This document shows, piece after piece, positions 14,973-59,046 of a DNA stretch of 64,000 bases. Position numbers and translations under genes: made by a program. Numbering within the stretch: position 1 is the first letter of the stretch; the number at the start of each line of letters is the position of its first letter. The notes under the pieces are model-generated. The model had not been told where the DNA came from, searched no databases, and was given only the letters and a program-made list of their open reading frames with translations. This DNA comes from Escherichia phage vB_EcoM_WFbE185, in sequence record MK373778.1, one strand, 5' to 3'.

Positions 14973-15209
14973 TTAACCACTTACCGGTGTAGGGGTAAAC
15001 ATTGCAGCGTTCTTAGTTTTCCAAGTTGCTGCATCAGAAACGACATCAGAATAAGCTGCCTTTTCTGATGGAAAGATTTGGTAATGAGAATCTGCAATCC
15101 GATGTTCGTTTGAATAAATCTCAAACGGTACAGAAACTTCCATACCTTTAACTTCTTTGCCTTCACCAGCCGGATGTGTAAAGGTTTTGATATTAACGTA
15201 ACCACCCAT
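14973..15209 (-). CDS. soc: small outer capsid protein Soc
   Basis: 78 aa; YVNIKTF...HYQ.FPSEKAAYS matches T4 Soc; late promoter upstream and terminator downstream. Confidence 0.8.
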   Translation of the reverse strand: MGGYVNIKTFTHPAGEGKEVKGMEVSVPFEIYSNEHRIADSHYQIFPSEKAAYSDVVSDAATWKTKNAAMFTPTPVSG

Positions 15210-15240
15210 AATTAACTCCTTTGTTGTTTAATTACAGGTG

Positions 15241-15248
15241 TATTTATA
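15241..15248 (-). promoter_or_regulatory. late promoter box TATAAATA for soc
   Basis: Exact TATAAATA on minus strand about 30 nt upstream of soc ATG, followed by AAGGAG SD. Confidence 0.65.
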
Positions 15249-45303: not shown

Positions 45304-47117
45304 TGGTGTTTAACCCTATGCATGATTTCTTTATTTTTACCGAGATTAAATCCGCGTTCGTTCGGATTTCCCAAATAACCGCATGTTCTTCTTATGGTGT
45401 TCATCTTTTTAGGATCAGTTTCTCCACAAATAGAACAAACAAATCCGTTTTCAGTAGGAGTCATTTCATGGGTACTTCCACATGTAAAACATTTATCCAC
45501 TGGCATATTAACACCAAAATAATCTAAATGTTGTGCAGCATAATCCCAGACGGCCTCAAGCCCCTTTAAATTGTTTTTCATATCTGGAAGTTCAACATAA
45601 GAAATGTGACCGCCGGTCGCTATGAAATGATAAGGAGCTTCACGAGAAATTTTTTCAAACGGAGTAATATTTTCTTCTACTGAAACATGGAAACTGTTAG
45701 TGTACCAGCCTTTATCTGTAACATCCTTTACACTTCCATATTTTTCTGTATCAAGTTTACAGAAGCGATAACAAAGGTTTTCAGCAGGAGTAGAATATAA
45801 ACTAAAAGCAAATCCAGTTCTTTCAGACCACTGTTTAAGATGAGCATTCATTTTAGTTAAAATTTCTTGCCCAATATCACGACCAACAAGAATATTCAAT
45901 TCGTGAATACCAATGTATCCTAAAGACACTGAACTTCTACCGTTTTTAAATAACTCAATTATGTCGTCATCAGGTTTAAGACGAACCCCGAATGCACCTT
46001 CTTGGTAAAGAATAGGAGCAACAGTCGCTTTAACTCCTTTTAAGGAACTAATTCTACACATCAAAGCTTCAAAACACAGGTCCATTCGTTCGTTAAATAG
46101 CTCAACAAATTTCTGTTCATTGAACTGTGTTCCAATATAAGAATCTAACGCAATACGAGGAAGATTCAGTGTTACAACACCAAGATTATTACGTCCATCA
46201 AGAATTTCATTGCCAGTCGAATCTTTCCATACACTCAAGAAACTACGGCAGCCCATTGGAGAAACAGGAACTGAAGAACCGGTAATAGCTTTATTATTCT
46301 TAACCGAAATAATGTCAGGATACATTCTTTTGCTTGCACATTCTAACGCAAGTTGTTTAATATCATAGTTCGGATCATCTTTATAAAGATTAACACCTTC
46401 TTCAACAAACATAACAAGTTTAGGAAAAATAGGAGTTATTCCATCACGACCAAGACCTTTAATGCGGTTTTTAAGAATTGCCTTCTGAATCATTCGTTCA
46501 GTCCAGTCAGTTCCCGTACCAAATGTAATTGTTACAAAAGGCGTTTGTCCGTTTGAACTAAAGAGAGTATTTACTTCATATTCATAAGCTTGGAACGCGT
46601 CATAGACATCTTTTTCTGTTTTGGATTGAGCATAATTCAACGCATCAGCAATTTGCCATTTTTCTGCATCTTCAACATGTTTAGCGTATGTGCGTTTAAC
46701 ATAAGGAGAAAGAACTTTATCGACATTCGCAAATGTAGTTCCGCCATACTGGTGTGAAGCAACTTGTGCGGTAATTTGTGCCATAATTGCAGTAGCAACG
46801 CCAATAGATTTAGGCGTTTCAATTTGAGCATTGCCTAATTTAAATCCATTCTCAAGCATCCCCTTTAAATCGACTAAACAGCAATTGGTAAACGGAAGAG
46901 CAGGAGAATAATCAATATCATGCATGTGAATGATTCCGCTTTCATGCGCATTCATAATAAAAGACGGGACCATATTTTTGGCAATGTGCTTAGACACAAT
47001 ACCAGCCATAAGGTCCCGTTGAGTTGGAAAAACACGAGAATCTTTATTAGCATTCTCGTTCAAAAGATCTTTATTAGTTTTATAAATTAATCCTTCAATT
47101 TCTTTTTCAATTTTCAT
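45300..47117 (-). CDS. nrdD: anaerobic ribonucleoside-triphosphate reductase NrdD (uninterrupted)
   Basis: 605 aa; C-terminal glycyl-radical motif RRTCGYLG and zinc ribbon CFTCGS...CSICG; no intron. Confidence 0.9.
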   Translation of the reverse strand: MKIEKEIEGLIYKTNKDLLNENANKDSRVFPTQRDLMAGIVSKHIAKNMVPSFIMNAHESGIIHMHDIDYSPALPFTNCCLVDLKGMLENGFKLGNAQIETPKSIGVATAIMAQITAQVASHQYGGTTFANVDKVLSPYVKRTYAKHVEDAEKWQIADALNYAQSKTEKDVYDAFQAYEYEVNTLFSSNGQTPFVTITFGTGTDWTERMIQKAILKNRIKGLGRDGITPIFPKLVMFVEEGVNLYKDDPNYDIKQLALECASKRMYPDIISVKNNKAITGSSVPVSPMGCRSFLSVWKDSTGNEILDGRNNLGVVTLNLPRIALDSYIGTQFNEQKFVELFNERMDLCFEALMCRISSLKGVKATVAPILYQEGAFGVRLKPDDDIIELFKNGRSSVSLGYIGIHELNILVGRDIGQEILTKMNAHLKQWSERTGFAFSLYSTPAENLCYRFCKLDTEKYGSVKDVTDKGWYTNSFHVSVEENITPFEKISREAPYHFIATGGHISYVELPDMKNNLKGLEAVWDYAAQHLDYFGVNMPVDKCFTCGSTHEMTPTENGFVCSICGETDPKKMNTIRRTCGYLGNPNERGFNLGKNKEIMHRVKHQ

Positions 47118-47587
47118 TTTAAACTCTTTCTAAGCTGCTTTTTGAATGAAGCTATTAATTGTGTTTTAGTATCAGATTCATTATATTCAAATCCTCTTTG
47201 AAGCATCTCGGACATCATTTCCTCTTTACCTAGTCTTGAGAACTCTTTAGTTTTGTCTGGAACAAAATTAGGATGGATATTATTATCAGAATAATCTTGT
47301 TTCAAATAAGCAAGAAGAGATTCAAGCCATTCGAGGTAGTCGACATCACGACCTTTAAGACCAGAACGGTTGAACTTATGCTTCATTTGGCCTTCTGCTG
47401 CGTTGCACAGATTACAGAGTAACCCACGAACTCTACCTGCTTTTGGCCCGTTTAATTCGTGGTCGTGGTCAAGATGGTTACCTTGAACATCAGGGTCTAA
47501 TTCACGGTGGCAAATAGGACACTTACCGTTCTGTGCATCATAAAATTTTTGTTTTTCTTCTTTGTATAATTTGCCAGATAATAACAT
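47114..47587 (-). CDS. 49: endonuclease VII (Holliday junction resolvase) gp49
   Basis: 157 aa; MLLSGKLYKEEKQKFYDAQNGKCPIC and HLDHDHELNGPKAG closely match T4 gp49. Confidence 0.85.
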   Translation of the reverse strand: MLLSGKLYKEEKQKFYDAQNGKCPICHRELDPDVQGNHLDHDHELNGPKAGRVRGLLCNLCNAAEGQMKHKFNRSGLKGRDVDYLEWLESLLAYLKQDYSDNNIHPNFVPDKTKEFSRLGKEEMMSEMLQRGFEYNESDTKTQLIASFKKQLRKSLK

Positions 47588-47593
47588 AATAAA

Positions 47594-47624
47594 CCCTTAC
47601 CATATATAGATAAGGGTATTTATA
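47594..47624 (-). promoter_or_regulatory. late promoter TATAAATA plus RBS-sequestering hairpin (CCCUUA...UAAGGG) upstream of gene 49
   Basis: TATAAATA box at 47617-47624; 6-bp inverted repeat whose 3' arm is the SD-like AAGGG 7 nt before the ATG. Confidence 0.55.
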
Positions 47625-47626
47625 AT

Positions 47627-47806
47627 TTAGTAAACGTTATAAAAGTCTCGATGAAAACGTTTATACTGTCGAATCATTCTTTTAGTAGGACGTGTTACCG
47701 AAATGATTGAAGTCCTCATGTTCGGATTGTTTGGAGCCCCAATCATAATAAATTTCCAGGATTTTTGGCCGTTTGTTCTTTCGCCATAAAATAGTTCAGT
47801 TTTCAT
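47627..47806 (-). CDS. small basic protein (59 aa) with RPTKRMIRQYKR motif, not in ORF track
   Basis: C-terminus TRPTKRMIRQYKRFHRDFY is paralogous to the C-termini of 19555-19791 and 48231-48401. Confidence 0.4.
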   Translation of the reverse strand: MKTELFYGERTNGQKSWKFIMIGAPNNPNMRTSIISVTRPTKRMIRQYKRFHRDFYNVY

Positions 47807-47815
47807 AATAAACCT

Positions 47816-48229
47816 TTAACTTAAACGTCTTTCTAAATATTCAATGTATTCCGCTGCGGCTTGCATCAGATTACCTTCATAACCGTCATTATTTTCTTGG
47901 GCGGCTAATTTAGCTAAAGCATAAGAAATACGTTCACCTTCGAATTCGCCAAGTCCACCATCACAAACTACTTGGTCAATTTCTTCGAGTTCATCTATTG
48001 AATGGGATTCCCAGAAGCACCAAAGAGAAGTATCACGGTCATAGATGCAAAGTTTCTCACCTGTGTTCAACATCACTTCAATAATGCCATGGTCGCCATA
48101 ACCATCTTCGGTAGTAGTACCAATTACCTTGATGATCGTATCTTTCTTTAATTCAGGAAACTTGACTTGTAGTTCTTCATCTTCTTTAACAATCTTGAAC
48201 CATTTACCGCGAGTTTCAGAAATATTCAT
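47816..48229 (-). CDS. hypothetical acidic protein (start moved to Met47)
   Basis: The track ORF N-terminus overlaps the upstream gene; position corresponds to the T4 pin region. Confidence 0.4.
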   Translation of the reverse strand: MNISETRGKWFKIVKEDEELQVKFPELKKDTIIKVIGTTTEDGYGDHGIIEVMLNTGEKLCIYDRDTSLWCFWESHSIDELEEIDQVVCDGGLGEFEGERISYALAKLAAQENNDGYEGNLMQAAAEYIEYLERRLS

Positions 48230-48230
48230 A

Positions 48231-48401
48231 TCAATATTCTCTATAAAAGTTACGATGAGAACGTTTAGCTTTGCGAAGCTGACGTTTAGTAGGACGAACT
48301 GTAAATGGTTGTCCAGAGAAAAAATTCGGATCGGTTTTAATAAGCAAATACCAATCATGCTTGCCATTTTTTAATAAACGGTACAATAATTTAACTTGCA
48401 T
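48231..48401 (-). CDS. small basic protein with RPTKRQLRKAKR motif (start moved)
   Basis: C-terminus VRPTKRQLRKAKRSHRNFYREY; promoter 48451-48480 upstream. Confidence 0.4.
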   Translation of the reverse strand: MQVKLLYRLLKNGKHDWYLLIKTDPNFFSGQPFTVRPTKRQLRKAKRSHRNFYREY

Positions 48402-48450: not shown

Positions 48451-48480
48451 ATCATAACACGTTTCTTCGTCGTTGTAAAC
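48451..48480 (-). promoter_or_regulatory. early-type promoter (-35 GTTTAC, 18 bp, TGt-TATGAT)
   Basis: GTTTAC...TGTTATGAT in the intergenic region. Confidence 0.45.
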
Positions 48481-58803: not shown

Positions 58804-59016
58804 TTAATTTTGGCCAGTATTTATTTTTCGCCTTTGGACGGCCTTAACATCTGCGAGGTATTTTTCCAGCTTGCGCTTGCGTGTATAATCAGCTTTAGAA
58901 CCAGTTTGACGAATATCCTCGTTTAAATGAGAAATAGAATGTCCTAATTCTCTTCGGATTTCGTCCAATTGGGTTACAGTAAGATTACGAAGTTGTCTTT
59001 CGTTTAATTGCTGCAT
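58804..59016 (-). CDS. hypothetical basic protein (70 aa) under a late promoter
   Basis: TATAAATA box 23 nt upstream of the ATG. Confidence 0.45.
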
Positions 59017-59038
59017 ATACCTCTTGGTTAGATATTAG

Positions 59039-59046
59039 TATTTATA
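59039..59046 (-). promoter_or_regulatory. late promoter box TATAAATA (overlaps tk stop codon)
   Basis: Exact TATAAATA on minus strand. Confidence 0.55.

Follow-up and report, generated by a model that had tools for sequence, protein, structure and literature searches.

The region immediately upstream of gene 49 in Escherichia phage vB_EcoM_WFbE185 is very probably a Mosigvirus element orthologous to the leader of T4 gene 49, in which a late promoter and a translational operator are combined. In the window, by which we mean the whole 64,000-nt stretch of DNA that was analysed (from record MK373778.1), a perfect copy of the T4 late promoter box directly abuts a hairpin whose 3' half contains the ribosome-binding site of the gene. 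The element itself is already known from T4, and what is described here is its counterpart in a close relative. What the analysis adds is breadth, and a clean covariation signal for a structure that had earlier been argued mostly from the T4 sequence alone. It also corrects a terminator annotation.

Organisation of the gene 49 leader

The sense strand of gene 49 is the minus strand, and all elements of the box and the hairpin lie there (Table 1). Read along this strand, the order is TAA AT TATAAATA CCCTTA TCTATATATGG TAAGGG TTTATT ATG. A sequence-only reading of the window had placed a late box followed by a CCCTTA...TAAGGG repeat at 47594-47624, and these coordinates do bracket exactly the box and both arms on the minus strand. 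That reading had also named the gene as encoding endonuclease VII, which the domain content bears out. The 157-aa ORF matches Pfam PF02945 (Endonuclease_7) with 71.9 bits (cutoff 23.6) and PF09124 (Endonuc-dimeris, the T4 endonuclease VII dimerisation domain) with 110.2 bits (cutoff 22). The gene 49 product thus carries both domains by which endonuclease VII is recognised, the catalytic one and the T4-type dimerisation domain.

Over positions 47000-48400, the window matches Escherichia phage vB_EcoM_WFL6982 and Shigella phage JK36, two Mosigvirus phages, at 100% identity, and it is itself assigned to Mosigvirus as an RB69/JS09-like T4 relative. The neighbouring ORFs of gene 49 are all co-oriented with it on the minus strand, and the stop codon of the 59-aa DUF7279 ORF lies 2 nt ahead of the late box. 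At the place corresponding to the nearest upstream promoter match, at 48451..48479, an early promoter is annotated in OL960576; this match is a likely source of read-through RNA.

Table 1. Features of the gene 49 leader and its surroundings in the window.
Feature	Position	Strand	Basis or remark
Late promoter box TATAAATA, T4-type (gp55)	47624..47617	-	Exact match; 29 nt before ATG
Inverted-repeat arm CCCTTA	47616..47611	-	5' arm
Spacer between the arms, TCTATATATGG		-	11 nt
Inverted-repeat arm TAAGGG	47599..47594	-	3' arm; Shine-Dalgarno element UAAGGG
Start codon ATG of gene 49	47587..47585	-	Follows TTTATT
Gene 49, recombination endonuclease VII, 157 aa	47114..47587	-	Pfam; annotated as endonuclease VII in many records
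DUF7279 ORF, 59 aa, upstream and co-oriented	47627..47806	-	CDS in MK373774 and OL960576
5' arm of upper stem, ACCCUUAUC	47609..47617	-	RNAfold and covariation; complete only in upstream-initiated RNA (early/middle read-through)
Hairpin loop UAUAUAU	47602..47608	-	RNAfold; sequence and length vary among relatives
3' arm of upper stem, GGUAAGGGU	47593..47601	-	RNAfold and covariation; includes UAAGGG (47599-47594)
Lower helix, UUAUG (start codon region) with the RNA copy of TATAA 47624-47620	47585..47589	-	RNAfold, 5 bp
Predicted late transcription start, A	47611	-	Spacing rule for a box at -13..-6; six bases past the last A of the box
Nearest upstream sigma-70/T4-early-like promoter match (TTTACA, 17 nt, TG, TATGAT)	48451..48479	-	Consensus scan, 10/12 matches; pattern match only
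Further T4-early-like promoter match	50199-50171	-	Consensus scan

Predicted structure and accessibility of the initiation region

In RNA that begins upstream, RNAfold predicts a 9-bp stem, A47617-C47609 with G47601-U47593, closed by a loop of 7 nt, and a lower helix that takes in the start codon; an equivalent lower helix is present in the T4 leader. The earlier suggestion that the 3' arm is an SD-like (Shine-Dalgarno-like) element can thus be refined. TAAGGG does lie in that arm, and the structure is a 9-bp stem plus a lower helix over the AUG, not just 6 bp over the SD. Six positions of UAAGGG, one of them through a G.U, can pair with the 3' end of 16S rRNA, and its spacing to the AUG is normal.

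The local early fragment of the window folds at -12.8 kcal/mol. Taken by itself, the fold of this one sequence is not significant (z = -1.83, with 12/200 shuffles equally stable). Calculated over the ensemble, the cost of opening the region from -14 to +5 is 14.4 kcal/mol in the long RNA against 4.3 in the predicted late RNA, which adopts a weak alternative fold of -3.5 kcal/mol. The corresponding medians over the 42 related sequences described below are 14.8 (long) and 4.2 (late) kcal/mol. Among minus-strand positions, 14.4 kcal/mol falls within the highest 1.8%, and among 117 ORF starts (median 5.45) it ranks 5th. De Smit and van Duin reportedly related the stability of the initiation region to expression; by that relationship, a difference of ~10 kcal/mol should shift translation by orders of magnitude. 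For the analogous structure of T4 lysozyme, the measured effect was 100-fold (PMC3014915).

A further outer helix in the 81-nt fold, AUAACGU (47640-47634)/AUGUUAU, was rejected as part of the element: T4 and other clades have unrelated sequence upstream, and the helix is taken as not conserved. Elsewhere in the window, the ORF starts at ~7369, 20281, 61828 and 13404 (minus strand) are even more occluded, at 18-19.5 kcal/mol to open. These four may be further translational operators, or terminators of the upstream gene that overlap the next start.

The late promoter box and the predicted start

In T4, the late consensus TATAAATA spans -13 to -6; relatives vary in the T at -13, and in Aeh1-type phages the late box is CTAAATA (PMC1524935). 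TAAATA is invariant in the 31 distinct relatives that were aligned, and loci L043-L046 carry CTAAATA, as Aeh1-type phages do. OL960576, which is 99.8% identical, marks the same box as a late promoter (47340-47347 of OL960576).

With the box at -13 to -6, the late RNA would begin at A47611, within the 5' arm, and this A is an invariant column of the alignment (A16; MAFFT, 31 sequences). A late start upstream of the 5' arm, on which the sequence-only interpretation would have failed, is geometrically unlikely, because this spacing puts +1 inside the arm. In the predicted late RNA, only 3/9 of the 5'-arm bases remain and the lower-helix partner is wholly gone.

Copies of TATAAATA are under-represented in the window, with 3 found against 7.15 expected from shuffles. 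All 3 lie on the minus strand in intergenic DNA, 22-31 nt 5' of an ORF start, and this scarcity and placement suggest selection against stray late promoters in the early region. The third copy (59046-59039, minus strand) is found just past the thymidine kinase ORF, 22 nt ahead of a 70-aa ORF at 58804-59016. A strong occluding hairpin was not found at 59016-59046 on the minus strand (opening 5.7 against 2.9 kcal/mol).

Conservation of the box and hairpin among relatives

Searching IMG/VR with gp49 yielded 44 loci, with 52-96% identity in gp49. With the window, T4 and six more distant GenBank phages, these gave 42 distinct upstream sequences. The six are Shewanella phage Thanatos-2, Citrobacter phage Miller (Pseudotevenvirus), Raoultella phage Rpl1 (Slopekvirus), Acinetobacter phage Acj61 (Lasallevirus), Aeromonas phage UP87 (Biquartavirus) and Enterobacteria phage Cognac (Krischvirus). 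The named representatives cover nine Straboviridae genera and the unclassified Shewanella phage.

In all 42 distinct sequences, a (N)TAAATA box stands 21-33 nt before the AUG, with the 5' arm of a hairpin immediately next to it. In these sequences the end of the 3' arm falls from -7 to +12, counted from the A of the AUG, and the arm covers the SD, the spacer or the AUG. Judged from this comparison, the feature conserved across the family is the occlusion of the whole initiation region, and not of the SD specifically. The local early fold has a stability of -12 to -22 kcal/mol (37 distinct sequences), and the median z against shuffles is -4.2 over the 42.

The arm pairs diverge between groups while their complementarity is kept, as in CCCTTA/TAAGGG, GGTTCA/TGAACC, CTCTTA/TAAGAG and GAGTCAT/ATGACTC, and also in AATGACACC/GGTGTTATT and AAGAGCATA/TATGCTCTT. 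From group to group, the stem sequences are thus completely exchanged. In its RNA form, the promoter box is often part of the anti-initiation arm, and the 3' arm sometimes shifts into the coding sequence.

Covariation was assessed for an eight-pair core; the alignment (MAFFT, 31 distinct sequences) was made without reference to any structure. Within this core, 90.6% of cells are paired, compared with 40.7-50.2% after sliding the 3' partners 1-3 columns. Both-sided (compensatory) changes are seen in five of the eight pairs, and two of the eight take on all four Watson-Crick types. Covariation scored 0.568, compared with 0.176 for shuffles, and none of 500 shuffles scored as high. RNAalifold recovered just 3 pairs from the MAFFT alignment, because loop indels misalign some rows; the pair count for the named structure was used in its place.

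The sense fold beats the antisense fold in 41/42 sequences, and G.U pairs are present in 38/42. This strand asymmetry, along with the G.U pairs, argues for selection on an RNA helix and against a DNA cruciform or an antisense element. The comparative data thus indicate that selection acts on the hairpin in its form as a sense-strand RNA helix. A DNA cruciform or a self-target of endonuclease VII had been considered as a candidate and is rejected on the same two observations.

It is because of this comparative evidence (covariation, compensatory changes and G.U pairs) that the hairpin proposed by the sequence-only reading is accepted as real; the single-sequence statistics are not significant. 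Furthermore, the box abuts the 5' arm in every relative examined except the KVP40-like Va3. In this Vibrio phage, gene 49 lies between opposite-strand genes, with no co-oriented upstream gene, and has neither box nor hairpin, an exception that fits a module existing to silence read-through RNA.

We favour, with moderate confidence, a broader reading in which box and hairpin form one co-evolving module, kept before gene 49 across most Straboviridae. Its range would take in the Tevenvirinae, Krischvirus, Pseudotevenvirus, Slopekvirus and the Acinetobacter, Aeromonas and Shewanella phages, with loss only where co-oriented upstream genes are missing (Va3). Early silencing of endonuclease VII would then be among the most deeply conserved post-transcriptional controls of the family. 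Such breadth across the family was not found stated in the literature consulted; it extends a known principle and introduces no new mechanism.

Two further results concern individual comparisons. In Shewanella phage Thanatos-2 (L049) and Aeromonas phage UP87 (L053), the 3' arm lies within the coding sequence, at codons 2-4, and the hairpin surrounds the whole SD-AUG region, the SD not being paired directly. A search of Rfam gave one sub-threshold chance match only, to a plastid group II intron (27.4 bits, where the gathering score is 140).

Alternative explanations

The alternative that survives best is that the hairpin is mainly an intrinsic terminator or attenuator, ending early pin/DUF7279 transcripts before gene 49. 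Public annotations conflict on this point: MK373774, identical to the window, annotates the hairpin as a putative terminator (ARNOLD, -11.0, 47559-47581 of MK373774), whereas OL960576 marks the late promoter TATAAATA alongside. Our consensus scan also calls the hairpin terminator-like (9 pairs, 4 G-C, loop 7, tail TTATTATGTT), and, like an intrinsic terminator, it has a short stem with G+C pairs ahead of a T-rich run; both ARNOLD and the scan predict it. In addition, T4 is listed as having a middle promoter for nrdD within gene 49, and OL960576 annotates one, so that downstream expression would not depend on read-through.

The details of the tail, however, fit a terminator poorly. The tail UUAUUAUGUU is broken by A's, leaving no uninterrupted U run, and it is at the same time the spacer and start codon of gene 49. 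Terminator-like tails are absent from most relatives: even a lax criterion (5 T in 8 bases) holds in only 16/42 distinct homologous sequences and fails in 26/42, and in most clades the stem ends on or past the AUG and is followed by coding sequence. What is conserved, instead, is the overlap with the initiation region and the abutment to the late box. Terminator-like matches in the region number 4 against 2.5 expected by chance in the consensus scan. Finally, multi-omics supplements (PMC9697503) place the transcript of T4 gene 49 in the early class, so RNA does reach the gene. On balance, a mainly terminating role is unlikely, although a partial, secondary role as an attenuator is possible in the T4/Mosigvirus clade. 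The terminator label in the identical GenBank genome is thus the less likely reading, and for the window this is mainly a point of annotation.

Considerably less probable is that the hairpin acts chiefly in RNA processing or stability, through a cleavage site in the loop or as a protective stem at the 5' or 3' end, and so sets mRNA half-life. Barth et al. reportedly found in 1988 that the long transcripts of T4 gene 49 undergo cleavage within or close to the hairpin, which counts towards such a role, as does the AUCU at the loop-proximal end of the 5' arm, which is nearly invariant in many relatives. However, AUCU is complementary to the SD core AGGU/GGU and includes the predicted +1 A, so its conservation is explained without cleavage. 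The loop, moreover, varies freely in sequence and length, while the pairing of SD, spacer or AUG is the constant feature. Processing would in any case add to a translational block and not substitute for it.

That the inverted repeat and TATAAATA are a chance occurrence in AT-rich intergenic DNA, or are elements of the plus strand, is barely credible: the single-sequence z of -1.83 and a plus-strand sigma-70-like match (TTACCA-18-TATAAT, 47597-47626, 10/12) lean that way, but chance is contradicted by the compensatory changes, the slid-partner controls and the invariance of TAAATA across relatives, and a plus-strand role by the greater stability of the sense strand in 41/42 sequences, by G.U pairs whose counterparts on the opposite strand would be A.C mismatches, and by a regional count of promoter-like matches barely above chance (19 against 13.2 expected in the consensus scan, a slight excess). 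The plus-strand match itself was taken as a chance match on the strength of this near-chance count and the strand asymmetry.

Proposed function of the leader

The reading that we prefer is a late promoter and a translational operator acting together. The analysis shows the sequence elements, how they are spaced, their computed energetics and selection on the sense-strand helix; promoter activity, the precise +1 and the extent of the translational effect are inferred. Features of a T4-type switch seen here are the late box at -13 to -6, a hairpin pairing with the SD and AUG, and co-oriented upstream genes. From this arrangement we infer read-through from the upstream genes into gene 49 in this phage. 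Early and middle transcripts would start upstream, in the nrdC-pin region, and cross the 59-aa ORF into gene 49. Such a long RNA would hold both arms, so that ACCCUUAUC could pair with GGUAAGGGU and hide the SD UAAGGG, while the RNA copy of the TATAA box would pair with UUAUG and hide the start codon. Binding of the 30S subunit would be inefficient, and little endonuclease VII would be made during DNA replication and recombination.

Late in infection, RNA polymerase carrying gp55 would recognise TATAAATA (47624-47617) and start at about A47611. The short late RNA would lack six of the nine 5'-arm bases as well as the lower-helix partner, and because these are missing its initiation region should be open. 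Endonuclease VII would then be produced when branched DNA needs resolving for packaging. Endonuclease VII cuts branched DNA, and delaying its synthesis until packaging would be a classic temporal control exerted through the 5' end of the transcript.

Relation to T4 gene 49 and similar switches

The sequence-only reading had likened this arrangement to that of T4 gene 49, and the comparison stands, as does every part of that reading that could be examined by sequence analysis. At the orthologous site in T4 (NC_000866), the 9-bp stem ACCCUUAUC/GGUAAGGGU is identical, the SD and the box-to-AUG distance of 29 nt are the same, and in both phages nrdD lies downstream of gene 49 and the upstream genes are co-oriented. 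For T4 gene 49, Barth, Powell, Trupin and Mosig are said to have described in 1988 a hairpin in the early RNA, a late start inside it and processing of the long RNA. Reviews list gene 49 with e, soc and I-TevI as T4 genes in which inhibitory structures sequester the SD and/or AUG in early RNA (Uzan and Miller, PMC3014915; PMC2988022). The late promoters encode the 5' strand of such structures (Uzan and Miller, PMC3014915), and for this class Edgell et al. (PMC2988022) refer to Barth et al. 1988.

The two leaders also differ in several respects. The T4 box is AATAAATA, whereas the window has the perfect consensus TATAAATA, and the T4 loop is UAUUUAA in place of UAUAUAU (three bases differ, and a tenth pair is gained). 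In the window, the DUF7279 ORF (59 aa) lies between pin and gene 49, whereas in T4 pin reaches the box. Furthermore, the GUG at codon 53 from which T4 starts the nested 12-kDa gp49' is GTT in the window (47429-47431, minus strand). In most relatives codon 53 is GTA, GTT, GTC or ATT, with GTA in close T4 relatives. A nested 12-kDa product is probably not made in the T4 way in the window, and this product looks specific to T4, since codon 53 is not a start codon in most relatives, even those close to T4.

Protein data for T4 agree with such a delay. LFQ values for END7 are zero from 0 to 8 min, appear in 2/3 replicates at 12 min and rise at 20-30 min, like those of baseplate proteins (PMC9697503). 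This timing is no more than suggestive of late translation, because many early-transcribed proteins of low abundance were also scored as late in that dataset (PMC9697503).

The T4 genes e (lysozyme), soc and I-TevI resemble the present case in that a late gene lies inside an early unit, a hairpin in the long RNA sequesters the SD or AUG, and the leader made from a late promoter within the 5' half is unstructured (PMC3014915, PMC2988022). They differ from it in gene, in stem sequence and in the number of late promoters, and these systems are analogous, not homologous. What appears to be a second switch of this kind in the window lies before soc (15209-15248, minus strand), where a 78-aa Soc-like ORF (14973-15209) follows gene 56. 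There, TATAAATA is found at 15248-15241, and a hairpin of -12.4 kcal/mol pairs CACC... with the AUGGGUGG start region. Opening costs 13.3 kcal/mol in the long RNA against 7.5 in the predicted late RNA, which agrees with the known T4 soc arrangement.

A last observation concerns the genes upstream. In the window, pin is flanked by two small DUF7279 ORFs (53-54 bits), at 47627-47806 and 48231-48401, both on the minus strand. The last 17 residues of T4 Pin (T4 locus L002, 1898-2383), SDRMIQQYKRLHQMFYN, share 65% identity with the C-terminus of the downstream DUF7279 ORF, and the Pin of the window ends earlier. For these reasons, T4 pin looks like a fusion with the tail of a deleted DUF7279 gene, the gene 49 leader having been left intact.
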